The translations under genes were made by a program, and so were the position numbers. Below, one piece after another: positions 8,575-25,194 of a stretch of DNA of 64,000 nt. How positions within the stretch are numbered: position 1 is the stretch's first letter; every line of letters starts with the position of its first letter. The DNA comes from Syntrophales bacterium (lineage in GTDB: Bacteria > Desulfobacterota > Syntrophia > Syntrophales > UBA2251). The notes below the pieces were generated by a model, which saw only the letters and a program-made list of their open reading frames with translations, was not told where the DNA came from and ran no database searches. The stretch spans positions 7,724 to 71,723 of the forward strand of contig DAOPOS010000008.1 in assembly GCA_035358035.1 (NCBI GenBank), given 5' to 3'.

Positions 8575-8628
8575 GGCCTCCTCCTTGAGGGATCTCCTGA
8601 AGCGATTTCTTTTCCCGGTCGGTGAGGA

Positions 8629-8657
8629 ACTATAAAAAGGTCGGCGGGGCTTGTCAA
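8629..8657 (-). promoter_or_regulatory. sigma70-type promoter of the CoA-transferase gene
   Basis: Minus strand TTGACA (8657-8652), 17 nt, TATAGT (8634-8629). Confidence 0.78.
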
Positions 8658-8736
8658 TCGAATATCGGTGCCCGTCCGGGACGACCTCCGGCGCCGGGGC
8701 GGGATCGTCTCCGGATCGTTTCGCCCCGGGAGGGGT

Positions 8737-9204
8737 TCAGGCCTTCCCCTTGCCGGCGGGTTTGTCCGTGTCGTGAAAGAGGTCGAAAAAGGACTGGAAG
8801 GCCGGGAGCGCCGCGATCGACGTCTGGGTCATCTTGGAGAGGTCCATCCCGAGGCTGAGCCATTTCCGGAACTGTTCGTCCGCCGCCAGCTTGTAGGAGA
8901 GGTAGTTCTTCAGCGTCTGCTCGAGATAGTGGTCGAAGAATTCGACCAGGACGGTTTCACCGTACTGAATGATCAGGTGCAGCAGGGGAACCGGCAGCAG
9001 GCTGTTTTTTTTCCTGGATTCCTCCAGGATGATCTGGGTGAGCGTGAAGGCCGTGACGTCTTCGGCGGTTTTTGCATCGACGACTTCCACGCGACGCCCC
9101 TGCCGGATGACCTGCATGACGTCGTCCAGGGTCACGTAGGCACTTCTCTCCGTGTCGTAGAGGCGTCTGTTGGTATATTTCTTCAAGCGCAGTTTTTCGG
9201 CCAT
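8737..9204 (-). CDS. phaR: PHA synthesis repressor PhaR family
   Basis: N-terminal KKYTNRRLYDTERSAYVTL and EDVTAFTLTQIILEE match the PhaR DNA-binding domain; lies within the pha cluster. Confidence 0.9.
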   Translation of the reverse strand: MAEKLRLKKYTNRRLYDTERSAYVTLDDVMQVIRQGRRVEVVDAKTAEDVTAFTLTQIILEESRKKNSLLPVPLLHLIIQYGETVLVEFFDHYLEQTLKNYLSYKLAADEQFRKWLSLGMDLSKMTQTSIAALPAFQSFFDLFHDTDKPAGKGKA

Positions 9205-9248
9205 CGTCCTTTTCCTTTCTCTTGGCGTTCATAGCGGAGAATCGGTTA

Positions 9249-9402
9249 CAATGCAACAAAAAAATATCGTCGGGCGAGAAAATATTTTCTGTCTCCGGAA
9301 CGATCAACTCATTTATCAACTTGATAATATGATGGATATTAAATTGTGTTCCTCTCGAATCCCAAGAGGAGATGTGGGAAATATTGTTATTGCAATGCAA
9401 CA
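9249..9402. promoter_or_regulatory. Candidate operator elements in the phaR/phasin divergent intergenic region
   Basis: CAATGCAACA at 9249-9258 and 9393-9402; palindromes AGAAAATATTTTCT (9277-9290) and TTATCAA-C-TTGATAA (9313-9327) in an AT-rich island. Confidence 0.5.
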
Positions 9403-9410
9403 TTTTCCGC

Positions 9411-9438
9411 TTGACAAATCTTTCGGGTGCGCTATATT
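9411..9438 (+). promoter_or_regulatory. sigma70-type promoter of the phasin-like genes
   Basis: TTGACA (9411-9416), 16 nt, TATATT (9433-9438). Confidence 0.7.
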
Positions 9439-9490
9439 AGGGCCGACGTTGGGCAGGAATGAAAAAAACGCAAAAAAGGAGGAAACAACA

Positions 9491-9784
9491 ATGGAACAGG
9501 AAAAGATTGCGAAGCAGATGATCGAATTTCACAAAACCACGTTCGACAACACCTTCAGTGCCGTGGAGATTCTCCAGGAGCAGACGGAAAAGATGGTCGG
9601 CATGTTTTTGGACCAGTCGCCGTGGTTCCCGGCTGAGGGGAAGCAGGCGGTCAACGAGTGGTTGAAGACCTACAAGGAAGGACGAGAAACGTTCAAGGAC
9701 AGCGTCAACGAAAGCTACAAGAAGGTGGAAGAATATCTGGGCGCCATCGAGAAGAAGGCCCCCAGGGCGAAGGCGGGCAAATAA
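9491..9784 (+). CDS. Small helical protein, phasin-like (paralog 1)
   Basis: 97 aa from ATG 9491 after AAGGAGG; amphipathic helical pattern; divergent from phaR; 44/83 identities by eye to the next ORF. CDS is solid, function is inferred. Confidence 0.7.
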   Translation: MEQEKIAKQMIEFHKTTFDNTFSAVEILQEQTEKMVGMFLDQSPWFPAEGKQAVNEWLKTYKEGRETFKDSVNESYKKVEEYLGAIEKKAPRAKAGK

Positions 9785-9854
9785 GATCGCGTAACGAACC
9801 TCCGCCCGGGAAGCGATGGCCGGAGGGGGGCAAAAACGGTGAAAGGAGAATGAC

Positions 9855-10133
9855 ATGGAACCGAAACAGATGGCGAAGCAGATGATGCAGTTCAACAAGG
9901 CCGCTTTCGACAACACCTTTAACGCCATGACGGTGCTGCAGGATCAGGCGGAGAAGATGATGAACAGCGTGATCGAGCAGAGCGCCTGGATGCCCGCGGA
10001 AGGCAAGAAGGCCCTGTATGACTGGCTCAAGGCCTACAAGCGGGGACGCGAGGACTTCAAGGCCGCGGCGGACGACAATTACAAGAAGGTCGAAGCGTTC
10101 TTTGCCGGCCTGGAGAAGGGCAAGGGCGCCTAG
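9855..10133 (+). CDS. Small helical protein, phasin-like (paralog 2)
   Basis: 92 aa, RBS AAGGAG; shares AKQM..F.K..FDNTF and PAEGK.A...WLK.YK.GRE.FK with paralog 1. Confidence 0.7.
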   Translation: MEPKQMAKQMMQFNKAAFDNTFNAMTVLQDQAEKMMNSVIEQSAWMPAEGKKALYDWLKAYKRGREDFKAAADDNYKKVEAFFAGLEKGKGA

Positions 10134-10248
10134 GGTCGCCGGCGGCAACCCTGTCCCGACGGGGGGATGACGAGGGGCTTCCCCTGCATCGCGACGACGA
10201 CCGCCGTCGCACCGCCGGATGTCCGCTCTGCCGGAGGATGGAAACGTC

Positions 10249-10734
10249 ATGGACGCAAGATTCTATGAGTTCTGGGTCCGGTTTTTTTCGTCCCTGGCGC
10301 AGGGACGGAACCCCTGGGAAGATTGGATTCCCGGGCGGACCCCGGCGGCCGGCGGCGCCGCCGACTTCGCGGAATTCTTCCGCGGGATGGACGGATGGGG
10401 GCGCCGGGCGGAAGGCGACCTGCCGGGCGGGGAGCTGTGGCAGGCGTCGGCGGAGGCGTTTGAGAAATCGCTCAAGGACTTCCTCGCCCTCTTCGACGTG
10501 GTTTCCCGGGAGGATTATCGGGCCCTGCAGGACGAATGCGCGGCCCTGAAGGAAAAGGTCGCGAGTCAAGAAAAGACCATTGCGGGCCTGAAACGGCGGC
10601 GCGGAAGGAAAGCGGGCGCCTCCCCGGAGGAAACGGTGGAACAGCTCCGGGAGGTCATCCGCAAGCAGAATGAGGAATTCCAGTCGCTCATGAAGACCGC
10701 GTCCGATCTCTTTGAAGGGCCCCCGACATCCTGA
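10249..10734 (+). CDS. Hypothetical coiled-coil protein, possibly PHA granule-associated
   Basis: About 161 aa; FDVVSREDYRALQDECAALKEKV heptads; follows the phasin-like pair on the same strand. Start uncertain (10219 or 10249). Confidence 0.6.
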   Translation: MDARFYEFWVRFFSSLAQGRNPWEDWIPGRTPAAGGAADFAEFFRGMDGWGRRAEGDLPGGELWQASAEAFEKSLKDFLALFDVVSREDYRALQDECAALKEKVASQEKTIAGLKRRRGRKAGASPEETVEQLREVIRKQNEEFQSLMKTASDLFEGPPTS

Positions 10735-10791
10735 ACGGCGAACGTCCGGGCCTCGCGTCCTGCCGCTTCGGGGGTCTGCGGTCGGTTGGTC

Positions 10792-11217
10792 TTATGGCTT
10801 CGCCTTGGGCGGGCTGACCAGGGCCTCGCCGTCGAGAACGACGGTGCCGTCCTGGTTGGTGCAGGTGGTCTTCAGGCGGACACGGTTCTTCTCGGCCAGC
10901 ACCTCGATGACCTCCACCCGGGCTGTGACGGTGTCGCCGAAGCGGACCGGCGCCAGAAAGCTGAGCGACTGCTTCAGGTAGATCGTGCCGGGGCCGGGGA
11001 GCTGCATGCCCAGCAGGTTCGAAATGAAGCCGGCGGTGAACATGCCATGGGCGATCCGGGTTTTGAAGAAGGTGTTTTTGGCGTAGGCCTCGTTGATGTG
11101 GGCGGGATTCAGATCCCCCGTGATCCCGGCGTAGAGATAGATGTCCGTTTCCGTCACGGTCTTCGAAAATTCGGCGGCGTCGCCCACCTTGATCCGATCG
11201 ATCGACTTACCGTTCAT
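10792..11217 (-). CDS. phaJ: MaoC-family (R)-specific enoyl-CoA hydratase
   Basis: Hydratase 2 motif YAGITGDLNPAHINE (catalytic D and H), IAHGM, PGPGTIY, FLAPVRFGD. Confidence 0.88.
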   Translation of the reverse strand: MNGKSIDRIKVGDAAEFSKTVTETDIYLYAGITGDLNPAHINEAYAKNTFFKTRIAHGMFTAGFISNLLGMQLPGPGTIYLKQSLSFLAPVRFGDTVTARVEVIEVLAEKNRVRLKTTCTNQDGTVVLDGEALVSPPKAKP

Positions 11218-11246
11218 GTTCCCCTGTCCCCCTTTCCCGATCGCGC

Positions 11247-12293
11247 CTAAAACCAGCAGCGGTGACTCCAGATTTCATCCTTGAGTTCCTTCATGTCGCT
11301 CTTGAGCATCAGGTAGAGGCCGGCGTTCTGGATGGCCAGCCCCCCCTGGTAGGCCAGGGCGGTGACCAGCAGGATTTCATCCTCCGTAAACTCGCGGGCC
11401 ACGGCGCTGTACAGCCGGAGAACGCCGATCACCCGTTCCTTCGACTTGATGGGAACGCTCAGGATGGTGACGATGCCCTCCGCCTTTTTTTCCTTCTTGT
11501 ACTGGACGCCCTTGTCCGTCGAGGCGTTCCGGACGACCACCGGCTTTCCCTTCAGGGCCTCGGCGATGCTCTTTTCCGCGGAAATCGGCCCCTTGTTGAG
11601 GTATTTCTCGCTGAGCCCGCAGCTGGCGACGAGCTTCAGGGTGTTGCTCTCCTCGTCCAGTAGACGGATCGAGGCCGCCTTGACCCCGATCGCCTGGGAG
11701 ACCTCGTAGCTCAGGGTCTGGAGGATGTCCTTGATGTCGAGGCTGGAGTTGATGCTGGCGGCCAGATCGAGGAAGATCCGGGTGTTCTCCCGCAGCCTTT
11801 CGACCAGCCGCGCGGTTTCGACCGCCACCCCGCCCTGTTCGGCCAGAACCGTCAGGAATTCGATCTCCTCGGCGGAGAAATCCCTCACCTTGGCCGTATA
11901 CAGCGAGAGGGTGCCGATGAAACGGCCTTTGACCCGGACCGGAACCACCAGAATGGAGGCGATGCCTTCCGCCCTTTTCGTCTCCCGGTTTTCCACCCCG
12001 GGATCGGAAGCGGCGTCGCGGAAGTGGAGGTACCCCTTTTTCAGGAGGAGGGGGATTTCCTTCTTGACGTGCGCCAGTCCCGCATGGACATAATTTTTTG
12101 AAAGGCCCGTCTGGGCGACGGGGACGTAGGTTCCCTTCTCCTCATCCATCAGGAAAAGGCAGGCCGCCTTGCCCCCCATGGCCTCGAGGACGCCCTGAAC
12201 GATCAGCTGCAGGATCTTATCCCGTTCCAGGGTCGTTCCCAGGGCCCGGCCGATCTTGACGATGGTCCTGAAATAATTGTTTTGCTTGGTCAT
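11247..12293 (-). CDS. Stand-alone tandem GAF-domain protein
   Basis: Two internal repeats (SILVVPVRVKGRFIGTLSLYT...FSAEEIEFLTVLAEQGG / TILSVPIKSKERVIGVLRLYS...FTEDEILLVTALAYQGG); no output domain. Confidence 0.85.
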   Translation of the reverse strand: MTKQNNYFRTIVKIGRALGTTLERDKILQLIVQGVLEAMGGKAACLFLMDEEKGTYVPVAQTGLSKNYVHAGLAHVKKEIPLLLKKGYLHFRDAASDPGVENRETKRAEGIASILVVPVRVKGRFIGTLSLYTAKVRDFSAEEIEFLTVLAEQGGVAVETARLVERLRENTRIFLDLAASINSSLDIKDILQTLSYEVSQAIGVKAASIRLLDEESNTLKLVASCGLSEKYLNKGPISAEKSIAEALKGKPVVVRNASTDKGVQYKKEKKAEGIVTILSVPIKSKERVIGVLRLYSAVAREFTEDEILLVTALAYQGGLAIQNAGLYLMLKSDMKELKDEIWSHRCWF

Positions 12294-12357
12294 GGGATCT
12301 CTCCTGTCTCGTGTCTGCCATCCGTTGCGGGGGGAAGGCTTCCCTCTCAAGACCGCT

Positions 12358-13593
12358 TTATTTATTCACCGCCCGCTTTGCCGGCCGGAGTCTCTCACTC
12401 TGAAGCCTTTTTTTCTTCGGGGGACGCGCCGGGGCCGGCCGGCCCTTCCCCCGCGCCGCTTTCCCGGGGGTGAACTTGACGATCGCCGCCCCTTTCGATG
12501 CCGGCCGGACGTCCGGCTCGTCCCTTTCCATCAGCCAGCGCGCGATTTTGGGTGCAAATTCTCGCTGGCTCTTGGAACTGACATAGATCCCGATATGGCC
12601 GGTATCGAGATTGACGTCCTCCGTATCCCGGCTGCCGACGTGCCGGGTGAGCTGTTCGCAGGCCGCCGGCGGGACCAGGTGATCGTACATGCCGTAGAAG
12701 TTCAGAAGCGGCATCGTGATTTTCTTGAGATCGACCCGCTTGCCGCCCAGTTTCATCTTGCTCTGGATCAGGAGATTCTTCTTGTAGCAGTCGTTGATGA
12801 ACTGCCGGAAGGTCTCGCCGGGGACGTCGGGGCTGTCGAAGATCCACTTCTCCATGCGGACGAAGTTTTCCACGAAGGGCTTGTTGTCCGCGTTCTCCAG
12901 GAAACCGACGTATTTGTCGATCATGAGGCGGGCCGGGTTCAACAGCAGAAACCCCAGGTTCATCAGATCCGCCGGGATGTTGCCGAAGGTGTCGACGATC
13001 CGGTCGGCGTCGAGGGCCTTCATCCAGATGTGGAGCAGGCCGGTGTCGGTGTCGAAGTGGGTCGGCGTCACCGTCGTGATCAGGTTCTTGACCTTTTCCG
13101 CGTGGAGCGCGGCGTACATGACGCAGAACGAACCGCCCATGCAGATTCCCATGAGGTTGATCCGGGGCAGGTTGTGCTTCCTGCGGATGAAATCCACCGC
13201 ATGATCCAGATAGCCGTTGACGTGATCGTCGATGGTGAGAAACCGGTCCTTCCGGGAGGGATAGCCCCAATCGACCATGTAGAGATCGATGCCGTCCCGG
13301 AGGAAGTTCTTGACCACGCTCCGGTCCGGCTGGAGATCCAGCATGGTTTCGCGGTTGATCAGGGCGTAAACGACCAGGAGGGGGGTCTTGAGCCTGGCCT
13401 CGCCTTCGAGGCGGTAGTGCTTCAGCCTGACGCGGTCTTCCTCGTAGACGACGTCATAGGGCGTGGACGCGATCTCGGTCGACAGCTCGCTGAGCAGGAC
13501 CTCCGACACCTTGGTGACCCGCGCCTGCGCCTTTTCCGTGTCTTCGGCCAGGCTGGCCAGAATGAGATCGAGGGGAATCTTGGGCTGATCCAT
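12358..13593 (-). CDS. phaC: Class III PHA synthase subunit PhaC
   Basis: PLLVVYALINR, lipase-box Cys GICMGG, Asp in YGMYDHLVP, His in DTGHIG, MEKWIFDSPDVPGE; adjacent to phaE. Confidence 0.95.
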   Translation of the reverse strand: MDQPKIPLDLILASLAEDTEKAQARVTKVSEVLLSELSTEIASTPYDVVYEEDRVRLKHYRLEGEARLKTPLLVVYALINRETMLDLQPDRSVVKNFLRDGIDLYMVDWGYPSRKDRFLTIDDHVNGYLDHAVDFIRRKHNLPRINLMGICMGGSFCVMYAALHAEKVKNLITTVTPTHFDTDTGLLHIWMKALDADRIVDTFGNIPADLMNLGFLLLNPARLMIDKYVGFLENADNKPFVENFVRMEKWIFDSPDVPGETFRQFINDCYKKNLLIQSKMKLGGKRVDLKKITMPLLNFYGMYDHLVPPAACEQLTRHVGSRDTEDVNLDTGHIGIYVSSKSQREFAPKIARWLMERDEPDVRPASKGAAIVKFTPGKAARGKGRPAPARPPKKKRLQSERLRPAKRAVNK

Positions 13594-13626: not shown

Positions 13627-14520
13627 TCAATCCGTGTTCAATTGCCTCTCCAGCTCCCGCACCCGCTTTTTCAACTGGTGAAGATCCCGGTAGAGCGCGT
13701 CGACTTCCTTGTGGGTGGGCACGGGCAGGAGCTGCAGGATATCCTGAACAACCTCGTTTTTGGCGATAATGAATTCCGACAGCTGATTGAACATCTCGCC
13801 GAGTGCCTGGTTGTACTCCGGCGACTTGAAGAGCGTCATGAAATGGCCTTCAAGGATCTTGACCCACAGGTTGTAGTACTCCTTGGCCTGCTTCGGAACC
13901 TTCCCCTGCTGCGCCAGCTTTTCAACCTCCTGCTGCATCACCTTGGCGGTCTGCTCGAAGGGGAGGTTGAGCAGGGAAAAGAATTCCGCGCTCGTTGCCT
14001 TGAGCAAGGCGAGCTTGTCGAAGAGCAGGTTCATCCGCTCCTGATAGAATCGGGTCAGACCCAGCTGGGGGATGTAAAAGAACTGACGGATCTCTTTTTC
14101 GTAGATGTCCTTCAGCGTCTTGAAGAACTCCTGGTCCAGGTTCTCGAAGTGGTAGGCCTCGACCTTCCGGCCGATCTTGCCGGCCTTCTCGATGTTGACC
14201 TTCTGAATCTGAAAGCAGGTGTCCCAGGAGGCTTCGGCGACCTTGAGAAACAGGTCGGGGAGGGCGTCAAGACTCTTTGATGCGGCGCTCGCCGCGGCCG
14301 GATCGCTCATCGTGGTGGAAAGCGACTGCCACATCTTGAGGGCCGTTTCCATCGATTCGAGGGACCGGTTGCGCGGCGGTTTCTGGGTGGAGGGCCCCGC
14401 CGCGGTCCCCGTCGGGGGCGGCACCATTTTCAGGAGCGAGGTCCACAGATCCGCCCCCGCCTTGATCCAGTCGGGGGGAAAAAGCCCGTCCGGGGCTTGA
14501 CCCTGCTGCGTCTCGTCCAT
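13627..14520 (-). CDS. phaE: Class III PHA synthase subunit PhaE
   Basis: PQLGLTRFYQE, YYNLWVKILEGHF...SPEY, LPVPTHKEVDALYRDLHQLKKRVRELE; directly upstream of phaC. Confidence 0.9.
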   Translation of the reverse strand: MDETQQGQAPDGLFPPDWIKAGADLWTSLLKMVPPPTGTAAGPSTQKPPRNRSLESMETALKMWQSLSTTMSDPAAASAASKSLDALPDLFLKVAEASWDTCFQIQKVNIEKAGKIGRKVEAYHFENLDQEFFKTLKDIYEKEIRQFFYIPQLGLTRFYQERMNLLFDKLALLKATSAEFFSLLNLPFEQTAKVMQQEVEKLAQQGKVPKQAKEYYNLWVKILEGHFMTLFKSPEYNQALGEMFNQLSEFIIAKNEVVQDILQLLPVPTHKEVDALYRDLHQLKKRVRELERQLNTD

Positions 14521-14691
14521 CGCACACCTCATGAGCCGGCAATGCCGCCCGGGGGATGGCGCCTCCCCCGCGCCCTTCTCTGTCTGCACGCGAAAAAAGG
14601 CCCTGCACCGATCCCGTGACGCGGAAGGTCAGGCGGCAAGATTGAGCAGGAACGACCCTGAAACGACGATTGATGAATATATCCAAACGAT

Positions 14692-15564
14692 TCAACCGTC
14701 AAGGGAAAAGATGCCGGCATGGTAGGAACTGCGCACGAGCGGCCCCGCCTCGACATGCCGGAAGCCCAGTCCCAGGGCGATTTCCCTGAATTCGGCGAAC
14801 TCGGCGGGGGGGTAGTACCGGGTGACGGGCCAGTGACGGCGCGTCGGCTGCTGGTACTGGCCGATCGTGACGCGCTGGCAGCGGACGGTGGCCAGGTCGT
14901 GGAGCAGGGCGACGATGGCGTCCCGGGTCTCGCCCAGGCCGATCATGAAGCCGGACTTGCTGACGATGTCCCGGTGCGGGTGAAGGGCGGCCAGCAGCCT
15001 CAGGGAGCGTTTGTAGTCCCCCTGCGGGCGGAGGCCCGGAAACAGGGATCTGACGACCTCGATGTTGTGATTGATCACCTCCGGTCCGGCGTCGATGATC
15101 CGCTCCAGCGCCGCGCGGCTCCCCTGGAGATCCGGGATCAGGACCTCGATGCGGCAGTCCGGGAGGCGCGTGCGCAGCAGGTGGATGCAGTGGGCGAAAT
15201 GTCCCGCGCCCCCGTCGGGCAGGTCGTCCCGGGTGACGGAGGTGATGACGACGTAGCGGAGACCGAGGGCGCGGACGGCCTCCACGAGACGCTCCGGCTC
15301 GCCGGCATCCACCGGCGCGGGCGTCCCCTGGCGGATGTGACAGTAGCGGCAGCCGCGCGTGCAGGTGTCGCCCAGGATGAGAAACGTGGCCGTTCCCGCC
15401 CGGAAACACTCCCCCCGGTTGGGGCAGAGGGCCTCCTGGCAGACGCTGTGGAGGCTCAGTTCGGCGAGGGTGCGCGCGATCCGGTGGTCCTCCTCGCCGC
15501 CCGGCAGCCGGACCTTCAGCCAGGGGGGCTTCCGAAGCGGGGGGCGGGCCGTTTTTGCATTCAT
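14692..15564 (-). CDS. lipA: Lipoyl synthase
   Basis: RKPPWLKVRL, auxiliary cluster CQEALCPNRGEC, radical SAM CTRGCRYC, TIGQYQQP, C-terminal VRSSY. Confidence 0.96.
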   Translation of the reverse strand: MNAKTARPPLRKPPWLKVRLPGGEEDHRIARTLAELSLHSVCQEALCPNRGECFRAGTATFLILGDTCTRGCRYCHIRQGTPAPVDAGEPERLVEAVRALGLRYVVITSVTRDDLPDGGAGHFAHCIHLLRTRLPDCRIEVLIPDLQGSRAALERIIDAGPEVINHNIEVVRSLFPGLRPQGDYKRSLRLLAALHPHRDIVSKSGFMIGLGETRDAIVALLHDLATVRCQRVTIGQYQQPTRRHWPVTRYYPPAEFAEFREIALGLGFRHVEAGPLVRSSYHAGIFSLDG

Positions 15565-15575: not shown

Positions 15576-17411
15576 TCAGAAGTAGTACCAGATCGACTTG
15601 TAGTCGCTGATGTTTTCGCCGTCCGCGGCCAGCCGCTTCAGGTAGTCGTAGATGGAGACGTCCGTGTAGAGATAGTCGAAATTCGTCGTGATCCGCGCCT
15701 CCCAGGTGTAGAAGCGGTACACCCGGCGGCCGTCGGGCAGGATCATGATGATCTCGTGGTCCTGCCAGGCCCGCAGGTTCGACTTCCCCAGGCGGGGGAC
15801 GTTGAAGACCGGTTCGTCCGTCCGGACGACGCCGGGCAGGAGACGGGCCTCCTCCTTCCGCTCCTGCTCGATGCGGGCCATCGGGACCCGGAAGTCCGCC
15901 GTCTCCTCCTTTCCCATCGTGTTGAAGGTGTAGTAGGGATCGATTCCGGAGAGCTTCAGCATCCGCCGGAGCAGGCAGAGTTCGAAGCGGCGGCTGTTGT
16001 AGTACGTGAAGACGTGCTGATTGTAGACATTGACGCCCAGGGCCTTGATCCGCTTGACCGCATCGAGGGCCTCGGGCGTCAGCTCCGCGGCGTGCTCGAA
16101 ATGGGTGGAGATGCAGATCTCCCGGCGGCCCCATTCGTGGTATTTCCTCAGGATCTCGAGGAAGCCCTCATCGATCCGGAAGGGGAGGGTGACCGGAACG
16201 CGGGTGCTGATCCGGATGCGCTCGACGTGGGGGATGTGGGCCAGCTGCTCGACGATCCATTCCAGGCGGCGGTTGTCCAGGCACAGGGGGTCGCCGCCGG
16301 TCACCAGGACCTCGCTGATATGGTCGTTGTCGCGGATCCACGCGACGGCCTCGCGGAGCGCCTCCGGAGGCAGCATCGCGGGGTCGTCGATCTGCTTCAC
16401 CTCCCAGTTGCGCTGGCAATAGACGCAGATTTGCGGACAGGCGTTGAAGGGCTTCAGGATCACGACCTTCGGGTACCGGCGGGTGATCCCGTCGACGGGG
16501 CTCGTCGAGCGCTCCTGCATGAAGTCCATGTCGACGCCCTGCTCCCGGTTGGCCGCGACGCTGGCGCAGTACCGGACGGACGGCAGGACCTGGGCGCGGA
16601 TCTGACGGTCCTCGTCGGTGCGTCCCGAGGCGTTGAACAGGGACAGGTAATAGGGGGTGATCTCCACGGGGATGCCCTTTTGGGCCGCCATCGCGAGCCC
16701 CGCCGTCTCGTCGTCGTCGAGCCGGACGAGCCGGGCGATCGTGTCGAGATCCGTCAGGATGTGCTGCAGGTGCCACCGGGGGTCCCGCCAGTCGGCCTCC
16801 GAGGCCCCGAAGTGCGCGAGGATCTCCGCCTTGAGCTTCCGCCGCTGACGGATGAGGGCGGCGTCGAATCCGGTCCGGTAGCGCCGGCGGTAGCGCCGCA
16901 TGATGGCCGAGTAGGCGTCGAGCTGCCGCGAGCGGGCCGTCGCCGCGGTACGGTCCTGGGCGGCCGACCGGCCGTCCGCTCCCCTCAGGAGTTCCGGGAT
17001 TTTCGGCTGCTTGCCGGCCTTGCCGGTGATGCCCTTGAAGAAGGCGAGGTACTCGCACAGAAAGGCCTCGCTGACCTGCTCCAGCGCCCCCGGGCGGTTC
17101 TGGGCCAGGTCGTAGAGGACGGTGAGCGGCGAGGCGCCGGTCAGGTGCTCGTTTTCCGTCCGGATGGTGTTGGAGAAGACGCGGAGGCATTCCTTGGCGT
17201 TTCTCTTTTCGATGGAATTCATGGTCGCGTAGGGGGTGTCCGGCTTCATGTTGAACATCGAGCGGTTGAGCTGGTTGAAGTAGTCGAACAGGATGTGGCG
17301 TGCCTCCTCGACGTGCTTGGAGCCGGCGAGGATCCTCCGGATCTGCGGGTCGGCGGCCCACAGCTTCTCGACGAGTTCCTTCCTGCCCAGGGAGAGAATG
17401 TTCTTGGCCAT
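15576..17411 (-). CDS. KamA-family PLP-dependent radical SAM enzyme (aminomutase-like) with ~200-aa N-terminal extension; substrate unknown
   Basis: ITRRYP, CPQICVYCQR, VLVTGGDPL, RISTRVPV, THFEH, PYY and PRLGK (PLP-Lys position). ATG 17411 is preferred over TTG 17477. Confidence 0.85.
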   Translation of the reverse strand: MAKNILSLGRKELVEKLWAADPQIRRILAGSKHVEEARHILFDYFNQLNRSMFNMKPDTPYATMNSIEKRNAKECLRVFSNTIRTENEHLTGASPLTVLYDLAQNRPGALEQVSEAFLCEYLAFFKGITGKAGKQPKIPELLRGADGRSAAQDRTAATARSRQLDAYSAIMRRYRRRYRTGFDAALIRQRRKLKAEILAHFGASEADWRDPRWHLQHILTDLDTIARLVRLDDDETAGLAMAAQKGIPVEITPYYLSLFNASGRTDEDRQIRAQVLPSVRYCASVAANREQGVDMDFMQERSTSPVDGITRRYPKVVILKPFNACPQICVYCQRNWEVKQIDDPAMLPPEALREAVAWIRDNDHISEVLVTGGDPLCLDNRRLEWIVEQLAHIPHVERIRISTRVPVTLPFRIDEGFLEILRKYHEWGRREICISTHFEHAAELTPEALDAVKRIKALGVNVYNQHVFTYYNSRRFELCLLRRMLKLSGIDPYYTFNTMGKEETADFRVPMARIEQERKEEARLLPGVVRTDEPVFNVPRLGKSNLRAWQDHEIIMILPDGRRVYRFYTWEARITTNFDYLYTDVSIYDYLKRLAADGENISDYKSIWYYF

Positions 17412-17444: not shown

Positions 17445-17473
17445 ATTCTGGCCGAAGCCGCCCCCGACGTCAA
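17445..17473 (-). promoter_or_regulatory. Possible internal sigma70 promoter for kamA-like gene and lipA
   Basis: Minus strand TTGACG (17473-17468), 17 nt, CAGAAT (17450-17445). Confidence 0.5.
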
Positions 17474-17568: not shown

Positions 17569-19083
17569 TCAATCGGGACCGGATGGGCCCTTCCAGCAGA
17601 CGTCCGGCCGGCGGGCGGCCCGGACCTCGTCGAGGCGCTTCACGGGGGTGGTGTGCGGGGCCGACTTCACGATCTCCGGGTCGTCCTTCGCCTCGGCGGC
17701 GATGGCGATCATCGCGTCGCAGAAGGCGTCGAGCGTCTCGAGGCTCTCCGTCTCGGTCGGTTCGATCATGATGGCCTCCGGGACGATCAGGGGGAAGTAG
17801 ATCGTCGGCGGGTGGACGCCGTAGTCGAGCAGGCGCTTGGCGATGTCGGTCGTGTGGACGCCGCTTTCCCGGACCTGCCGTCGTCCGGAAAAGACGCATT
17901 CGTGCATGCAGGGGCGGTCGTAGGCGAGGTCGTAGAAGGCCTTCAGGCGCGCCTGGACGTAGTTGGCGGCGAGGACGGCGTCTTCCGCCGTCTGGCGGAG
18001 GCCCGCCGCGCCGAGGCTGCGGAGGTAGGCGCAGACCCTGACCATCACGGCGACGTTTCCGTAAAAGGCCCGGACGCGCCCGATCGTGTCGGGATACGCC
18101 TCCGACCAGGCGTAGCCCGCGTCCGTCCGGACGATCCGGGGGACGGGGAGGAAGGGTTCGAGGGCGGCCCCGACGCCGACGGGGCCGCTCCCCGGGCCGC
18201 CGCACCCGTGGGGGGTGGAGAAGGTCTTGTGGAGGTTCAACTGGATGACGTCGAAGCCGATCTCGCCCGGCCGCACCTTTCCCAGGAAGGCGTTGGCGTT
18301 GGCGCCGTCGCCGTAGAGGAGGCCGCCCCGGTCATGGATGATCCGGGCCACCGCCGCGATGTTCCGCTCGAAGAGTCCCAGGGTGTTCGGGTTCGTCAGC
18401 ATGAGGCCGGCGGTGTTTTCCGTCGTGGCCGCGTCCAGGGCGTCGAGATCCACGCCGCCCGCGTCGTTGGACGGCACCTGCACGACCTCGTAGCCGCACA
18501 GGGCGCCCGAGGCGGGGTTCGTCCCATGGGCCGTGTCGGGGATCAGGATCTGCGTGCGTTTTTCTCCCCGCTTCTCGAAATACTTCCGGATCATCATGAC
18601 GCCCGTCAGCTCGCCGTGGGCGCCGGCCGCCGGCTGCAGGGTGAAGTCGGCCATGCCGAAGATCTCGCAGAGATCGCGGCGCAGGCCGTCCATCAGCTGC
18701 AGGCTGCCCTGGGCGAAGGCGGCCGGGACACCGGGGTGGAGATCGGCGAAACCGGGCAGCGCCGCCGCCGCGTCGTTCACCTTCGGGTTGTACTTCATCG
18801 TGCAGGAGCCGAGCGGGTAGAAGCCGAGGTCGACGCCGAAGTTGCGGCGGGACAGGGCGGTGTAGTGGCGGACGAGATCGACCTCCGCCACCTCGGGGAG
18901 GTCGACGTCGTTCCGGAGCAGGTGCGCTTCGATGCGCGGGCCGTCGGCCGTCTCCGGCACGTCGCACGGCGGGACCGCGCCGGCCCGCCGGCCCGGCCGG
19001 CTCTTTTCGAAAATCAGCGCAACGTCCGGATGGGGGGGATGCTTTTCCACGGTTTCTCGCTCCGTTCGTTCGATCCGGTTCAA
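17569..19083 (-). CDS. gcvPB: Glycine dehydrogenase (decarboxylating) subunit 2
   Basis: FYPLGSCTMKYNP, QPAAGAHGE, HGTNPAS, LNLHKTFSTPHG (PLP Lys), IEPTETES. Start uncertain (TTG 19083 or GTG 19050). Confidence 0.96.
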   Translation of the reverse strand: MNRIERTERETVEKHPPHPDVALIFEKSRPGRRAGAVPPCDVPETADGPRIEAHLLRNDVDLPEVAEVDLVRHYTALSRRNFGVDLGFYPLGSCTMKYNPKVNDAAAALPGFADLHPGVPAAFAQGSLQLMDGLRRDLCEIFGMADFTLQPAAGAHGELTGVMMIRKYFEKRGEKRTQILIPDTAHGTNPASGALCGYEVVQVPSNDAGGVDLDALDAATTENTAGLMLTNPNTLGLFERNIAAVARIIHDRGGLLYGDGANANAFLGKVRPGEIGFDVIQLNLHKTFSTPHGCGGPGSGPVGVGAALEPFLPVPRIVRTDAGYAWSEAYPDTIGRVRAFYGNVAVMVRVCAYLRSLGAAGLRQTAEDAVLAANYVQARLKAFYDLAYDRPCMHECVFSGRRQVRESGVHTTDIAKRLLDYGVHPPTIYFPLIVPEAIMIEPTETESLETLDAFCDAMIAIAAEAKDDPEIVKSAPHTTPVKRLDEVRAARRPDVCWKGPSGPD

Positions 19084-19264: not shown

Positions 19265-20599
19265 TCAGGGGCGGAGGACGTCGACCGCCCGGTCCAGGTC
19301 CGCCCGCGTGAGCAGCTCCGTGGCGCACAGGAGCAGCGTGCCGGACAGCTCGGGATACTCCCCCGCGAGGCTGATCCCGCCGCTGATGCCGGCCTCCGCC
19401 CACCGGGCGTTCACGCCCTCCGGATCGGGACAGCGCAGGACGAACTCGTTGTAGACCGGCCCGGAGAAGGCGGGCGCCCAGCCGGGCAGGTCCAGCAGGC
19501 GCCGGCGCAAATACCCGGCCTTCGCGGCATTCAGCTCGGCCAGGGGCTTCAGGTTCTTCCCCAGGCAGGCGAGGTAGACGGCCGCGGCGAGGGCGCACAG
19601 GGCCTCGTTGGAGCAGATGTTCGAGGTCGCCTTCTCCCGCCGGATGTGCTGTTCGCGGGTCTGAAGCGTCAGGACGAAGGCGCGCCGGCCGTCCCGGTCC
19701 ACCGTGGCGCCCGCCAGGCGGCCCGGGATCTTCCGCAGGAACGGGTCCGTGGCGGCGAAGATGCCGAGATACGGCCCGCCGTAACTGACCGGATTGCCGA
19801 AGGCCTGGCCTTCCCCCGCGCAGAGGTCGGCGCCCAGCTCGCCGGCCGGCCTGAGCAGGCCCAGGGAGGTCGCTTCGGTGAAGCAATGAACGAGGTGCGC
19901 CCCGGCGGCATGGACGGGGGGCGCGGCGGCGGCGAGGTCCTCCACCACGCCGAAATAATTGGGGCTCTGCACGATGACGGCGGCGGTCGATTCCCGGACG
20001 GCGGCCGCGAGGGCCTTGGGGTCGAGCCGGCCGTCGCCCGTGAACGGCGCCTCCTCGACCGCCAGTCCGTTCGCCCAGGCGTAGGTCCGGAGAACCTGGC
20101 GGTACGCGGGGTGGACGGAGCGGGCGACGACGACCCCGGTCCGGCCGAGCGTCCTGGCGGACAGCACCGCCGCCTCCGCCGTCGCCGAGGCCCCGTCGTA
20201 CATCGAGGCGTTGGCCACCGGCATCCCCGTGAGGCGGGCGATCATGGTCTGGTATTCGTAGACGGCCTGCAGGATGCCCTGGCTGATCTCCGCCTGGTAG
20301 GGGGTGTAGGCCGTGGAGAACTCGGACCGTTGCGTCAGGTGTCCGACGACGGCGGGGATGTAGTGCCGGTATGCGCCGGCGCCGGTCAGGGTGATGTCGG
20401 GGAGGCGGTTGCGTTCGCTCAGCGCCTTCAGATGGGTGAAGGCCTCCTGCTCCGAGAGGGCGGGCGTCAGGTCCAGCAGGCGGCTCAGACGCCATCGCTC
20501 GGGGATGTCCCCGAACAGGGCTTCGATGGAGGCGATCCCGACCACGTCCATCATGGCCTTGCGGTCTTCCGCCGTGTGCGGACTGTAATCCATCGGCAT
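19265..20599 (-). CDS. gcvPA: Glycine dehydrogenase (decarboxylating) subunit 1
   Basis: TAYTPYQAEISQG, ANASMYDGASA, LTLQTREQHIRREKATSNICSN. Confidence 0.96.
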   Translation of the reverse strand: MPMDYSPHTAEDRKAMMDVVGIASIEALFGDIPERWRLSRLLDLTPALSEQEAFTHLKALSERNRLPDITLTGAGAYRHYIPAVVGHLTQRSEFSTAYTPYQAEISQGILQAVYEYQTMIARLTGMPVANASMYDGASATAEAAVLSARTLGRTGVVVARSVHPAYRQVLRTYAWANGLAVEEAPFTGDGRLDPKALAAAVRESTAAVIVQSPNYFGVVEDLAAAAPPVHAAGAHLVHCFTEATSLGLLRPAGELGADLCAGEGQAFGNPVSYGGPYLGIFAATDPFLRKIPGRLAGATVDRDGRRAFVLTLQTREQHIRREKATSNICSNEALCALAAAVYLACLGKNLKPLAELNAAKAGYLRRRLLDLPGWAPAFSGPVYNEFVLRCPDPEGVNARWAEAGISGGISLAGEYPELSGTLLLCATELLTRADLDRAVDVLRP

Positions 20600-20612: not shown

Positions 20613-21011
20613 TCAGTGCGCCTCGTCCCGGATGAAGGCGTCGTAGGCGGCGGCGTCCATCAGGCCGTCGTATTCCTGCGGATCGGCCAGCTTCAGTTTC
20701 GCGATCCACCCCTCGCCGCAGGCGTCCTCGTTGATGAGCTCCGGCCGGTCCTCCAGGGCCCCGTTCACGGCGATGACCTCGCCGCTCAGGGGGGCGAAGA
20801 CGTCCGAGACGGACTTGACCGACTCCACGACGGCGACGGCCTCGCCCTGGCGGACCTGCCGGCCGGGCGCGGGGAGCTCGACGAAGACGATGTCGGTGAG
20901 CAGTTCCTGGGCGTGATCGGTGATGCCGATCGTCGCCGTGCCGTCGCCGTGCGGCAGGGCCCACTCGTGCTCCTGGGAATATTTCCGGTCGGTTGGATTG
21001 GGTTTGGACAT
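20613..21011 (-). CDS. gcvH: Glycine cleavage system H protein (copy 1)
   Basis: YSQEHEWA, GITDHAQ, lipoyl-Lys in VESVKSVSD. Confidence 0.96.
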   Translation of the reverse strand: MSKPNPTDRKYSQEHEWALPHGDGTATIGITDHAQELLTDIVFVELPAPGRQVRQGEAVAVVESVKSVSDVFAPLSGEVIAVNGALEDRPELINEDACGEGWIAKLKLADPQEYDGLMDAAAYDAFIRDEAH

Positions 21012-21044: not shown

Positions 21045-22139
21045 TTACCGCGGACGCCTGTAAAAGGGCAGTTCGACCACCGCGGCCGGGACGAGGTTGT
21101 CGCGGATTTGAATGCCGATCTCCGTCCCCGGCGCCTGCGCCGCCGCGGACACCAGGGCCAGACCGATGGCCCGGGAAAGCGTCGGGGAAAAGGTTCCCGA
21201 GGTGACGGCGCCGATCGCCTCGCCGTTCCGCCAGACGGGGTGCCCCTCGCGGGCGATTCCCCGTCCGGTCATCGCGAAGCCGACGAGCTTCCGGTCCGCG
21301 CCCGCCGCCTTCCGGCGCCGGAGGGCGGCGCTCCCGATGAAGTCCTTCGCCGGATCGACGAGCCAGCCGTAGATCACCTCGTCGGGCGTGGTCGTTTCGT
21401 CCATGTCATGACCGTACAGGAGCATGCCCGCCTCCAGGCGGAGCGTGTCCCGCGCCCCGAGACCCACGGGCCTCAGGTTCCGGGCGGCGCCGTGTTCGAG
21501 CAGCGCATCCCAGATCGCGCCGATTGCGTCGCTCGCGGCGTAGATCTCGAAGCCGTCTTCGCCGGTGTAGCCGCTGCGGGAGACAAGGGTCGGCCGGCCG
21601 GCCACCCGCGTGCGCGTGAAGCGGTAGTACGCGAGCCCGTCCAGGGCGGCCGGCGTCAGGGGCTGCAGGATCGCCTGGGCCGCCGGGCCCTGGAGATCGA
21701 GTTTCCCGATTTCATCCGTCCGGTCGACGATCTCCACCTCCCGGAATCCCTCGGCCTCCTTGACGGTCCTGAGCCAGGCCACGTCCTTGAGCCGCGTTCC
21801 GGCGTTGGTGACGAGTCCGTAGCGGTCCGCCTCCAGACGATAGACCGTCAGGTCGTCCAGAATGCCGCCCGCTTCGCTCGTCAGGACGCTGAGCCTGAGC
21901 CGGCCCGTTTCCAGGTCGCCCAGATCCCGGCTCAGGCACCGCTGCAGAAGTGCCAGCGCGGCGGCGCCCCGAACCTCGATCTCGCCCATGTGACAGATGT
22001 CGAAGAGCCCGGCGCTCTTCCGCGTGGCGCGGTGCTCCTCGATGACGCCGGTGTACTGGACGGGCATCGCCCAGCCGCCGAAATCGATCATCCGGGCGCC
22101 GGCGCGAACGTGGCGGTCGTAAAGCGGCGTCTGGTTCAT
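21045..22139 (-). CDS. gcvT: Glycine cleavage system aminomethyltransferase T
   Basis: [55 protein letters not shown]. Confidence 0.96.
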
Positions 22140-22278: not shown

Positions 22279-22602
22279 CTAATAGTAACGGTAAAGCAGG
22301 GACAGCAGGATCAGGATAACGACCACCCCGAAAAAGATGTTGGATTTTCTCAGGGCCTTTCCGCCCACCACGACCCCGTCGCAGGACTGGCAGACCGTCA
22401 GGTGCGAGGCAATGGGCGCCCCGCAGCTGGGACATCGCAGCTCCCGCTCCCGCGAGGCCGTCTTGGCCTCGGCGCTTTTTTTGATCTGTTCGCCGACGTC
22501 GTAGGTCCAGCGGCAGTCATCGGTCGGGCACCGGCCCCGGATCGGCATCCGGTCCGTCCAGATGAAACTCCTCCCGCACTGGGGACATTGGATTTTGACC
22601 AT
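22279..22602 (-). CDS. Small multi-zinc-ribbon membrane protein, hypothetical
   Basis: 107 aa with CPQC, CPTDDC, CPSC, CQSC and a C-terminal hydrophobic helix (IFFGVVVILILLSLL). Confidence 0.75.
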   Translation of the reverse strand: MVKIQCPQCGRSFIWTDRMPIRGRCPTDDCRWTYDVGEQIKKSAEAKTASRERELRCPSCGAPIASHLTVCQSCDGVVVGGKALRKSNIFFGVVVILILLSLLYRYY

Positions 22603-22808
22603 CGCTTGTCTCTCCGGAAACGCTTCTCTGAATCGTTCGGTGCCGTCCTACGTACTATAAGGAGGGGGGGATTTCAAGGCAAAAGGTCCGCTCCCATTAT
22701 TTTATTGATTGTTTCCCGAAACTGGTATATGAAATTCCACCTTTTTGCAGCGCGGCCGAGCCGCTGCGCGGGAGGGGGCTCAACGTTCGAGTTTGCCGGG
22801 AGTGGCAC

Positions 22809-23543
22809 ATGATCAGGTTTCAGGGTGTGCACAAATGGTTCAAGAAACTTCATGTGTTGAATGACGTCAATCTCCATGTCAAGCAGGGCGAGGTCGTCGT
22901 CGTCTGCGGTCCCTCCGGATCGGGGAAATCCACCCTCATCCGGACGATCAACAAGCTCGAACCCATCCAGAAGGGCAGCCTGTTCGTCGACGGACAGGAC
23001 CTGTCCGACCGGAAAACCGACATCAACCGGCTGCGGGCGGAAATCGGGTTCGTCTTCCAGCAGTTCAATCTCTATCCTCACCTGAGCGTCATCAAAAACA
23101 TCACCCTGGCGCCCATCAAGATCCGCAAGCTCGCCCGCACGGAGGCGGAGGAGCAGGCCATGGCCCTGCTGGAGCGGGTCGGGCTCGCGGAGAAGCGGGA
23201 CGCCTACCCGGCGCAGCTCTCCGGAGGGCAGCAGCAGCGGGTGGCCATTGCCCGCGGGCTCGCCATGAAGCCGAAGATCATGCTCTTCGACGAGCCGACG
23301 TCGGCCCTCGACCCGGAGATGATCGGAGAGGTCCTGGAGGTCATGCAGGGCCTGGCCCACACGGGGATGACGCTGATCGTGGTGACCCATGAAATGGGAT
23401 TCGCCCGCGAGGTGGCGGACCGCGTCACCTTCATGGATTACGGCGTGATTCTCGAAGAGGCCACGCCGGACGAATTCTTCAAGAATCCCAAGCACGAGCG
23501 GGCGCAGTTGTTCCTCAAGGAGATCCTCTCTCCGATGCACTAG
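22809..23543 (+). CDS. Polar amino acid ABC transporter ATP-binding protein (GlnQ family)
   Basis: Walker [39 protein letters not shown]. Confidence 0.95.
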
Positions 23544-23640
23544 GAGAGATCAGGCGGCGGGCTAAAGGCACCGGGCCATGAGGATGGTCCTGAATTCAGC
23601 CTTCGATGGGAATTCATTCAGCGTTGAAAGGAGGACAAGC

Positions 23641-24465
23641 ATGATGAAGCGATTGGGGATGTGGGTATTGGCACTGGTGTTTGTGGGCGGCCTGGGGGGC
23701 ACGGCGCTGGCCGCGGATACCCTGGCGGACGTGAAGAGCAAGGGAGTAATGGTCTGCGGCGTGAAGGATTCCACGCCCGGGTTCGGCTACATCGATGAGC
23801 AGACCCGCGAGATCATGGGGTACGACGTGGACTTCTGCCGGGCCATTGCCAAGAAACTCGGCGTCAAACTGGAGCTGAAACCCGTGACCTCGGCGACCCG
23901 GATGCCCCAGCTCATCGCCGGCAACATCGATATCATCGCCGCGACGATGACCAAGAATGCCGAGCGGGCCAAACAGATCGATTTCAGCTACATGTACTTC
24001 TTCACCGGCCAGAAGTTCCTCGTGAAGAAGGGGACGGTCAAGAAGCTGGCCGACCTCGAGGGGAAGCGGATCGGCACGGCCAAGGGGTCCACCTCCGAGC
24101 AGAATGCGGCCAAGGCCCTGCCCAAGGCCACGATCCTGTCCTTCGACGATTACCCCCAGGCCTTCCTGGCCCTGGAGCAGGGCAAGGTGGTGGCCGTCAC
24201 CACCGACGAGTCGATCCTGGCGAACCTGCTGGCCAAGGCGCCCAACAAGAAGAACTACGAAATCCCCAACATCCAGATCTCCGACGAGCCCTACGGCCTC
24301 GGGATGCGCAAGGGCGACACGAATTTCGTGAACGCCGTCAACAAGGCCCTCCTGGACATGGAGAAGAAGGGCGAGGCGAAGAAACTCTACACGAAGTGGT
24401 TCGGCCCCAAGGGAAAATCGGGAATCGTCCTGAAGCGGACCTTCACGATTACGCCGGAACGATAA
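23641..24465 (+). CDS. Polar amino acid ABC transporter substrate-binding protein (Glu/Asp/Gln-like)
   Basis: Signal peptide, GYDVDFCRAIAK, ATMTKNAERAKQIDFS, EPYGLGMRKGD; RBS GGAGGA. Confidence 0.92.
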   Translation: MMKRLGMWVLALVFVGGLGGTALAADTLADVKSKGVMVCGVKDSTPGFGYIDEQTREIMGYDVDFCRAIAKKLGVKLELKPVTSATRMPQLIAGNIDIIAATMTKNAERAKQIDFSYMYFFTGQKFLVKKGTVKKLADLEGKRIGTAKGSTSEQNAAKALPKATILSFDDYPQAFLALEQGKVVAVTTDESILANLLAKAPNKKNYEIPNIQISDEPYGLGMRKGDTNFVNAVNKALLDMEKKGEAKKLYTKWFGPKGKSGIVLKRTFTITPER

Positions 24466-24483
24466 GAGGAGTTTCCTCCGAAC

Positions 24484-25191
24484 GTGTTCAACTATCAGTT
24501 CGACTGGGCAATCGTTACATCAGGGCAGTACTTTGAATGGATCCTGTCCGGCGTCAAGGTCACCATTCAGCTGTCCCTGGTGTCGATTGCCCTCGCTTTT
24601 ATCCTGGGGCTGCTCGTGGCGGTCATGCGGATGAGCCAGAACGCGCCCATCCGCTGGTTCGCCATGGGTTACCTCGAGTTCTTCCGCAACACCCCGCTCC
24701 TCGTTCAGATTTTCTTCTGGTATTTCGGCTCCGACAAGATCCTCCCGCAGGCCGCCCGGGACTGGCTGTACAGCATGAATTTCGAATTCGCCGCCGCGGT
24801 CATCGCGCTGACGATCTACACCTCGGCCTTCATCGCCGAGGACATCCGCTCCGGCGTCCGCTCCATCCCGAAGGAGCAGATGGAGGCGGCCCGCAGCTCC
24901 GGATTCTCCTACGTCCGGTCCATGCTGTACATCATCCTGCCGCAGGCCGTGCGGATCACGATCCCGCCGCTCATCAACCAGTTCCTCAACCTGGCGAAGA
25001 ACTCGTCGCTCGCCATGACCATCGGCGTGGCGGAACTGACGTATCAGGCCCGGCAGGTGGAAAGCTACACGTTCAAGGGGTTCGAGGCCTTTACGGCGGC
25101 GACCCTGGTCTATCTGGTGATCTCGCTCGTCATCACGGCGCTCGTCACCCTTTACAGCAAGAAGGTGCTGAGCCCCATCGGGATGCGATAA
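24484..25191 (+). CDS. Polar amino acid ABC transporter permease
   Basis: EFFRNTPLLVQ, EAA loop EQMEAARSSGFS, IILPQA, NLAKNSSL. Confidence 0.93.
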   Translation: MFNYQFDWAIVTSGQYFEWILSGVKVTIQLSLVSIALAFILGLLVAVMRMSQNAPIRWFAMGYLEFFRNTPLLVQIFFWYFGSDKILPQAARDWLYSMNFEFAAAVIALTIYTSAFIAEDIRSGVRSIPKEQMEAARSSGFSYVRSMLYIILPQAVRITIPPLINQFLNLAKNSSLAMTIGVAELTYQARQVESYTFKGFEAFTAATLVYLVISLVITALVTLYSKKVLSPIGMR

Positions 25192-25194
25192 CGT

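Follow-up and report, generated by a model that had tools for sequence, protein, structure and literature searches.

A predicted long-form KamA-family aminomutase of Syntrophales and its widespread branch related to glutamate 2,3-aminomutase

To our knowledge, only three substrate specificities, for lysine, glutamate and arginine, have been demonstrated among the 2,3-aminomutases that combine radical S-adenosylmethionine (SAM) and pyridoxal 5'-phosphate (PLP) chemistry. In lysine 2,3-aminomutase (LAM), Asp293 and Asp330 bind the epsilon-amine of lysine, and a Lys/Asn pair at these two positions is the signature of glutamate 2,3-aminomutase (Glu-AM), a type reportedly described from Clostridioides difficile by Ruzicka and Frey in 2007. 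Here, we analyzed a 64,000-nucleotide stretch of the genome of a Syntrophales bacterium (GenBank assembly GCA_035358035.1, contig DAOPOS010000008.1, positions 7,724 to 71,723; hereafter, the window), whose minus strand carries at 15576-17411 a gene for a 611-residue protein (MAKNIL...SIWYYF). An earlier sequence-only reading had singled out this gene as a long KamA-family enzyme that lacks both lysine-binding aspartates. The predicted protein is a KamA-fold radical-SAM/PLP enzyme with all cofactor ligands conserved and belongs to a distinct long-form clade, whose closest characterised relative, as judged by the comparisons below, is Glu-AM. We hold with moderate confidence that this branch consists of PLP- and radical-SAM-dependent 2,3-aminomutases that would form a beta-amino acid, most likely of the glutamate type.

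The gene was defined by its translation, by matches to TIGR00238 and PDB entry 2A5H, and by its orthologs. An alternative in-frame ATG at 17477 would make the protein 22 residues longer, but this start is unsupported because the N-termini of orthologs align to the start at 17411. TIGR00238, the hidden Markov model (HMM) of the KamA family, was the only family model passed (296.5 bits against a cut-off of 199.2, E 2e-88), whereas every equivalog model failed: TIGR04368 (Glu-AM, 231.7 bits against 650, yet the best model at this level), TIGR03820 (LAM, 198 against 525), TIGR04468 (arginine 2,3-aminomutase, 162 against 600) and TIGR03821 (EpmB, 134 against 369). This agrees with the earlier view of an uncharacterised KamA-family enzyme. 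A Pfam scan of the protein returned the generic Radical_SAM domain only, with no LAM_C (PF12544). The only solved relative is Clostridium subterminale LAM (2A5H), which was matched in sequence at E 2e-43 and was also the sole strong Foldseek match of the predicted structure (E 7e-18, 293 columns, rmsd 2.9). By BLASTP, a bona fide Glu-AM (P0192) was 31% identical to the query over residues 147-588 (E 8e-58), and the best short-form representatives matched were likewise of the Glu-AM type. P0192 (TIGR04368, 693 bits against 650) and the LAM P0206 (TIGR03820, 638 bits against 525) served as alignment controls.

The catalytic framework is intact, as had been proposed, and every motif quoted for it was located in the translation. 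The CxxxCxxC-x-R motif of the [4Fe-4S]/SAM cluster occurs as C325-PQI-C329-VY-C332-Q-R334 (16410-16439, minus strand), in which translation and alignment make Arg334 the equivalent of LAM Arg134. GGDPL, HFEH and PRLGK occupy residues 372-376, 437-440 and 539-543, respectively. The last of these ends in Lys543 (codon 15783-15785, minus strand), the presumed PLP Schiff-base lysine that corresponds to LAM Lys337 and is invariant in an alignment of the long family, Glu-AM and LAM. The roles of the cluster, SAM, PLP and substrate residues are presumed from the literature on 2A5H and were transferred to this protein by sequence correspondence. Cysteines are present at positions 75, 119, 282, 325, 329, 332, 377, 433 and 479; since none lies beyond residue 479, the LAM zinc site (Cys268/375/377/380) is absent. 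Thus, the lack of a C-terminal Zn-Cys cluster was read correctly, although it is a family-wide trait that short glutamate-type forms share.

The two specificity positions lie within YYTFNTM499GK501 and PVFN537VP. HMMER paired PYYTFNTM with PYYIYQCD of 2A5H, irrespective of whether the single sequence or a 30-sequence family profile was used, and this register places Met499 (codon 15915-15917, minus strand; HMM and multiple alignment) at LAM Asp293, where Glu-AM has Lys. The HMMER alignments end before Asp330, and the C-terminal sequence of 2A5H was recovered via a canonical AblA in a related locus. In the multiple alignment, VFN537VPR-LGK543 of the query falls under VVD330APGGGGK337 of LAM and IVNAPKGLGK of Glu-AM, so that Asn537 (codon 15801-15803, minus strand) corresponds to LAM Asp330 and to the Asn of Glu-AM; BLASTP against P0192 gave the same register. 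Both correspondences, which had been drawn by eye, were therefore upheld by HMM and multiple alignment, and proper alignment restored neither Asp nor Lys at these positions. P0192, validated by TIGR04368, carries the Lys/Asn pair expected of Glu-AM.

A search of 5.8 billion proteins detected more than 100 full-length (~604 aa) orthologs with 55-94% identity in Syntrophales, other Thermodesulfobacteriota, Methanocella, Thermoplasmata, DPANN archaea and Omnitrophota. Their database names are limited to "KamA family radical SAM protein" or, in JGI, "lysine 2,3-aminomutase". When one genome per GTDB species was considered, at least 575 species-level relatives (44-94% identical) were found, the best 80 of which add Bacteroidales, Fibrobacterota, Lentisphaerota, Gemmatimonadales, Ignavibacteria, Spirochaetes, Marinimicrobia, Methanoperedens, ANME-2 and Vulcanimicrobiota. 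Clustering at 50% yielded about 25-30 full-length clusters with identity down to about 34%, and bacterial and archaeal members are about 55% identical. Judged by these searches, long-form KamA is a large and widespread branch without a characterised member, found in anaerobic bacteria and archaea.

Analysis of 192 orthologs showed that residue 499 is Lys in 144 (75%), Met in 27 (14%), Gln in 20 (10%) and Leu in 1. Of these orthologs, 190 have Asn537 and all 192 have Lys543; Lys501 and the cluster cysteines show little or no variation, and R334, R312-Y313, GGD, R400/R404, H437, N464-Q465 and Y493-Y494 are conserved or nearly invariant. Among superfamily representatives at 50% identity, the pair at the two positions is either K/N (31) or D/D (24), with M/N, Q/N and L/N restricted to the long family. 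Given the Lys majority at 499 and the near-universal Asn537, the ancestral pair of the long family was Lys/Asn. Met499 is, by the same counts, a minority, lineage-specific state and not a family signature. The sequence-only reading had argued that Met/Asn fits neither the lysine nor the glutamate enzyme and that the substrate should therefore differ; the two residues are real, but they do not typify the family.

Almost all sequences with Met or Gln at this position are of the Syntrophales type. In a neighbor-joining tree (no support values), the query and P0001 (94% identical), both with Met, are basal in a clade linked to glycine-cleavage (gcv) genes whose other members all have Lys, and the sister of this clade is a Met/Gln/Leu clade that is not gcv-linked. 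K/M changes occurred at least two or three times in this tree, with the other pocket-motif residues fixed. The monophyly of the long family plus Glu-AM was recovered in 0/100 bootstrap replicates because the predefined groups mismatched the clades: the long clade includes divergent sublineages with other residue pairs. We found no compensating cationic residue that tracks the loss of Lys499, and the columns that do co-vary look phylogenetic.

A helical N-terminal extension of ~200 residues had also been reported for this protein. The extension was confirmed, with LAM residue 12 matching query residue 203 and an all-helical structure predicted for residues 1-200, but it is a family-wide hallmark and is not specific to this gene. 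It consists of two parts. A long helix before the core (residues 147-206; 16794-16973, minus strand) aligns with the N-terminal ~55 residues of Glu-AM; the BLASTP match to P0192 begins at query residue 147 and the TIGR04368 match at residue 153. What remains as additional sequence is therefore roughly residues 1-135 (17007-17411, minus strand), a predicted all-helical orphan domain supported by alignments and by AlphaFold2 (AF2) with a predicted local distance difference test score (pLDDT) of about 90. Its family-invariant residues include W18, A37, R38, C75, R77, N81, R84 and E86-N87-E88. When modelled separately (pLDDT 80), this domain had no fold match in the PDB (best E 0.63), and no Pfam or NCBIfam match was found.

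At the other end of the protein, W-Y-Y-F (residues 608-611; 15579-15590, minus strand) abuts the stop codon, and its last three residues are invariant in a 30-sequence alignment, which suggests that the free C-terminus might have a structural or catalytic role. A few relatives carry additional regions. P0142 and P0143 have N-terminal extensions of ~310 residues without a Pfam match, P0130 (822 aa) begins with a TetR_N domain, and P0137 (1357 aa) has DnaJ upstream and peptidase M54 downstream of KamA. The last two fusions were considered as functional clues and set aside as uninformative, as they may be gene-call artefacts. A DnaJ-domain protein is also encoded two genes downstream of the long KamA in a Thermoplasmatales locus (L049).

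If the chemistry of the family applies, the [4Fe-4S] cluster at Cys325, Cys329 and Cys332 would cleave SAM to give a 5'-deoxyadenosyl radical, which would abstract a C3 hydrogen from an alpha-amino acid bound to PLP as an external aldimine. PLP would be bound to Lys543 in the resting state and Arg334 would hold the alpha-carboxylate; the amino group would then migrate from C2 to C3, yielding a beta-amino acid. The predicted architecture in which this would take place begins with an orphan helical N-domain and a Glu-AM-like helix, continues with the radical-SAM/PLP barrel and closes with a Cys-free C-terminal domain that has the invariant WYYF end. Because the ancestral Lys/Asn pair is that of Glu-AM, L-glutamate or a close acidic analogue would be the most likely substrate class, giving beta-glutamate. 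By analogy, the Lys-type majority most likely converts L-glutamate to beta-glutamate, either as a compatible solute or as a catabolic intermediate, and gene context points to compatible-solute synthesis in many lineages and to beta-amino-acid catabolism in others. In the Met499 form, specificity may be relaxed or changed, or glutamate may be kept as substrate through the charge of Lys501.

In the window, the gene follows a glycine cleavage cluster on the same strand. The minus-strand order is gcvT (21045-22139; NF001567, 425 bits), gcvH (20613-21011; NF002270, 174 bits), gcvPA (19265-20599; NF001696, 555 bits), gcvPB (17569-19083; NF003346, 724 bits), a 157-bp spacer, the aminomutase gene and, 11 bp after its stop, the lipoyl synthase gene lipA (14692-15564; NF004019, 372 bits), followed by phaE and phaC. 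A divergently transcribed ABC transporter for polar amino acids, made up of an ATPase, a binding protein and two permeases, lies upstream at 22809-25896 on the plus strand; it passed no equivalog cut-off. These positions, including the 11-bp gap, confirm the arrangement described before. The 157-bp spacer does contain the promoter-like sequence that had been proposed as an internal promoter, TTGACG-17-CAGAAT at 17445-17473 (minus strand), although the consensus scan that detected it is a pattern match only. A sister locus (L085) keeps TTGACG-17-CAAAAT, but this retention is weak and unspecific evidence because the entire spacer is 86% identical.

The gcvT-H-PA-PB-aminomutase-lipA order was found in about 20 species-level Syntrophales/Syntrophaceae loci as well as in L085, so the linkage is not unique to one genome. 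The distance between the gcvPB stop and the aminomutase start is only 3-6 bp, or the genes overlap, in 8 of these loci, and lpd follows lipA in 9. Given the conserved order and the short gaps, the aminomutase is an operon member in the gcv-linked Syntrophales clade. However, gcv and lipA are entirely absent from the neighborhoods of about 60 loci outside this clade. The linkage is restricted to a single Syntrophales clade. A conservative reading of the gcv-lipA embedding is that the aminomutase may be co-regulated within an amino-acid catabolic module. In one Syntrophus aciditrophicus metagenome-assembled genome (MAG; L078, 10001-11554), the gcv-linked long KamA stops after residue ~490, which may reflect a pseudogene or an assembly or frameshift error.

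We also clustered the neighbors of long KamA genes (1166 open reading frames (ORFs) from 82 loci) and found no universal conserved neighbor beyond clade-specific synteny. Genes related to osmotic or ionic stress recurred in unrelated phyla. For example, MscS lies directly downstream of the aminomutase in two Bacteroidota and one Micrarchaeota (L044, L047 and L056), NhaD occurs nearby in L027, L034 and L041, a Na+/H+ exchanger in L030 and L056, TrkH in Methanocella (L001) and OsmC in L057. In a Candidatus Methanoperedens MAG (L040, 6680-11815), MscS (ynaI), ablA, a GNAT acetyltransferase gene (ablB-like) and the long KamA gene lie on one strand, with the long KamA starting 16 bp after the acetyltransferase; the adjoining AblA is canonical. 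A salt-induced ynaI(MscS)-kamA-ablB operon with "genes of unknown function" downstream has been described in another Methanoperedens strain (PMC11337218), an arrangement like that in L040. Na+ riboswitches have also been reported upstream of the osmoprotectant genes ablA and eam (PMC9337991).

A second recurring theme is the metabolism of amino acids and beta-amino acids. In a Syntrophales clade with Gln499 (L017, L018, L021 and L025; about 4600-11800 in each), five genes are conserved as a unit: those for a TAXI-TRAP binding protein, DUF1850, a 908-aa fused DctQM, an Ord-like dehydrogenase and the long KamA. The dehydrogenase scored 271 bits against a cut-off of 400 with the 2,4-diaminopentanoate dehydrogenase model, and the unit looks like an uptake-plus-catabolism operon for some amino acid. 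Aminotransferase genes adjoin the aminomutase in L034, L041 and L051; in two loci, aspartate-aminotransferase-like genes are directly downstream. In L051 (Woesearchaeota, 6123-13073), genes for a MutS-V-domain protein, a D-lysine 5,6-aminomutase alpha-like protein, a B12-binding beta-like protein, the long KamA and an ornithine--oxo-acid transaminase (534 bits against 378) all lie on one strand, forming a lysine/ornithine-fermentation-like cluster in a DPANN archaeon. In two Vulcanimicrobiota MAGs (L079, 745-7873; L082, 3-7186), two long-KamA paralogs surround a ~1040-aa hybrid sensor histidine kinase with Cache-HAMP-PAS-HisKA-HATPase-receiver domains. Deoxyhypusine synthase was found within 10 kb in L001, L016, L043, L050 and L083, but was never adjacent, and this association was judged too weak.

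Several observations weigh against a glutamate-type 2,3-aminomutase. The query itself lacks the Lys that defines the Glu-AM signature, and its Glu-AM model score is far below the cut-off (231.7 against 650). Within Syntrophales, residue 499 switches among K, M, Q and L and so may not be the key determinant, a role that the invariant Lys501, which is absent from Glu-AM, may have taken over. The AF2 model built from 30 orthologs has a mean pLDDT of 75, but values below 50 at residues 495-512 and 526-551, exactly the loops of Met499, Asn537 and Lys543, so the pocket is not readable in it. The neighborhoods are heterogeneous, and the recurrence of osmotic-stress genes is a raw count with no background comparison. 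The embedding of the aminomutase in a gcv/lipA operon is a puzzle, as it has no mechanistic explanation. No branch member has been assayed, and a full-text literature search found no paper on the long-form family. In addition, early nuclear magnetic resonance labelling spoke against the formation of beta-glutamate by an aminomutase in methanococci, according to a 2005 review (PMC1224877).

The alternative that survives best is that the Met499/Asn537 and Gln499 forms were neofunctionalized for a neutral or other amino acid and feed a beta-amino-acid pathway linked to glycine cleavage, a possible explanation that we hold tentatively. It would account for the distribution of residue 499, as Lys is kept in every Glu-AM-type and nearly all long-family representatives, and M, Q and L are confined to the long family and, with few exceptions, to its sequences of the Syntrophales type. 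The distinct operon of the Gln499 clade, in which TAXI-TRAP genes and the Ord-like dehydrogenase accompany the aminomutase, fits a different, catabolic role, and no compensating cationic residue co-varies with the loss of Lys499. However, other orthologs at the same gcv-lipA operon position all have Lys, so the same context tolerates both states, and K and M have switched at least two or three times with the other pocket-motif residues unchanged. Moreover, the invariant Lys501 could bind a distal carboxylate, and position 499 may have a steric role, since K, M, Q and L each have a long and flexible side chain. A combined scenario is that the long-form clade is a beta-amino-acid synthase, most plausibly for the osmoprotectant beta-glutamate, and that the Met499 and Gln499 variants of Syntrophales were recruited, as 2,3-aminomutases with a non-acidic substrate, to catabolic operons, in one case with glycine cleavage and lipA genes and in the other with the TRAP transporter and the Ord-like dehydrogenase; taken as a whole, we consider this scenario rather unlikely.

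It is also conceivable, but improbable, that the KamA scaffold has been adapted to other chemistry, such as deaminating a beta-hydroxy amino acid, in net terms, via an unstable 3-amino-3-hydroxy product. Compared with LAM and Glu-AM, the C-terminal domain and the substrate loops have diverged strongly, the N-domain is without a known fold relative, and divergent sublineages of the long clade carry other pairs at the specificity positions. On the other hand, the catalytic framework is fully conserved, and every characterised KamA-family enzyme that we know of is a 2,3-aminomutase.

Even less probable, in our view, is an accessory factor of glycine cleavage or lipoylation, which would act on GcvH or lipoyl-lysine, or support GcvH/LipA, and would not use a free amino acid. 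The position of the gene between gcvPB and lipA in about 20 diverged genomes, with gaps on the scale of translational coupling, would be consistent with such a role; the large conserved N-terminal domain could bind a protein partner, and the sequence is unusually well conserved between domains of life (about 55% identity between bacteria and archaea). Yet the linkage is absent in about 60 loci, including those of DPANN archaea and methanogens, where the gene is often solitary. The Arg for the alpha-carboxylate and the full free-amino-acid/PLP framework are conserved, and the chemistry would be without precedent. Finally, it is highly improbable that the gene encodes a conventional lysine 2,3-aminomutase (KamA/AblA) or an enzyme of the EpmB type, as stated in several automated annotations: the JGI names and the B12-dependent 5,6-aminomutase-like pair in L051 speak for lysine, but both epsilon-amine-binding aspartates are replaced, TIGR03820 (198 against 525) and TIGR03821 (134 against 369) failed, LAM_C and the Zn-Cys site are lacking, and a canonical AblA already stands beside the long KamA in L040.

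The remainder of the region contains several other features. Directly downstream of lipA, a PhaE-like gene (13627-14589) and PhaC (12358-13593), both on the minus strand, form a class III polyhydroxyalkanoate (PHA) synthase pair. Next come genes for a double-GAF regulator (11247-12350) and for a MaoC/PhaJ-type dehydratase (10792-11217, minus strand), and a fused 3-oxoacid CoA-transferase is located farther downstream (6595-8736). The sister locus L085 has the same set of genes together with a PHB_acc_N protein. Between a promoter-like TTGCCT-17-TATAGT (22654-22682, minus strand) and gcvT lies a 107-aa ORF (22279-22602, minus strand) with no family match; the matching ORF in the same place in L085 has a faint Zn_ribbon_3 match. 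An Rfam scan of 10-27 kb gave no match at E up to 1, including no glycine riboswitch before gcvT, and a scan of the whole window detected only one tRNA, tRNA-Gly(CCC) at 39925-39999 on the plus strand. A HemN-like radical SAM gene (NF006385, 472 bits) and selA, for L-seryl-tRNA(Sec) selenium transferase (595 bits), lie at 26704-29620 (plus strand), and the peptide deformylase gene lies at 25946-26530 (minus strand).

This analysis exposes a large and deeply conserved branch, with hundreds of species-level representatives and an orphan domain, that has so far been annotated only in generic terms. Should this branch make beta-glutamate, it would provide a gene handle on an osmolyte whose archaeal biosynthesis has been debated (PMC1224877), and it would mark adaptation to salt in communities of methanogens and methanotrophs. 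If the Met and Gln variants use non-acidic substrates, they would represent a new route of beta-amino-acid degradation. In either case, the natural K/M/Q variation in defined operon contexts is a ready-made test of substrate choice with relevance to beta-amino-acid biocatalysis. From the alignments and neighborhoods described above, the gene is best filed as an uncharacterised long-form, Glu-AM-like KamA aminomutase and not as a one-off Met/Asn enzyme.

Compared with known systems, the most distant are EpmB (YjeK, which carries out beta-lysylation of EF-P) and arginine 2,3-aminomutase, which belong to the same KamA superfamily as the query but gave the weakest HMM matches and have a D/D-type pocket that is not found in the long family. 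No EpmA-like ligase was seen among the annotated neighbors, although no search aimed at epmA or efp was made. LAM (KamA/AblA, 2A5H) shares with the query the fold, the cluster, SAM and PLP ligands and the Arg for the alpha-carboxylate. It differs in that Asp293 and Asp330 are replaced by Met and Asn, and in that the query lacks LAM_C and the Zn site and has a 190-aa N-terminal extension. Glu-AM (Eam, TIGR04368) is the closest: it has in common with the query the radical-SAM/PLP barrel, CxxxCxxC-x-R and the PLP lysine, as well as Asn at the LAM Asp330 position within an N-A/V-P-K/R-x-LGK motif. Its Lys at the Asp293 position is that of 75% of the long family, whereas the query has Met. Neither Glu-AM nor the long family has the Zn-Cys site, and both have the helix before the core. 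What sets the long family apart from Glu-AM is about 135 more N-terminal residues, a different C-terminal domain ending in WYYF and the additional invariant Lys501.

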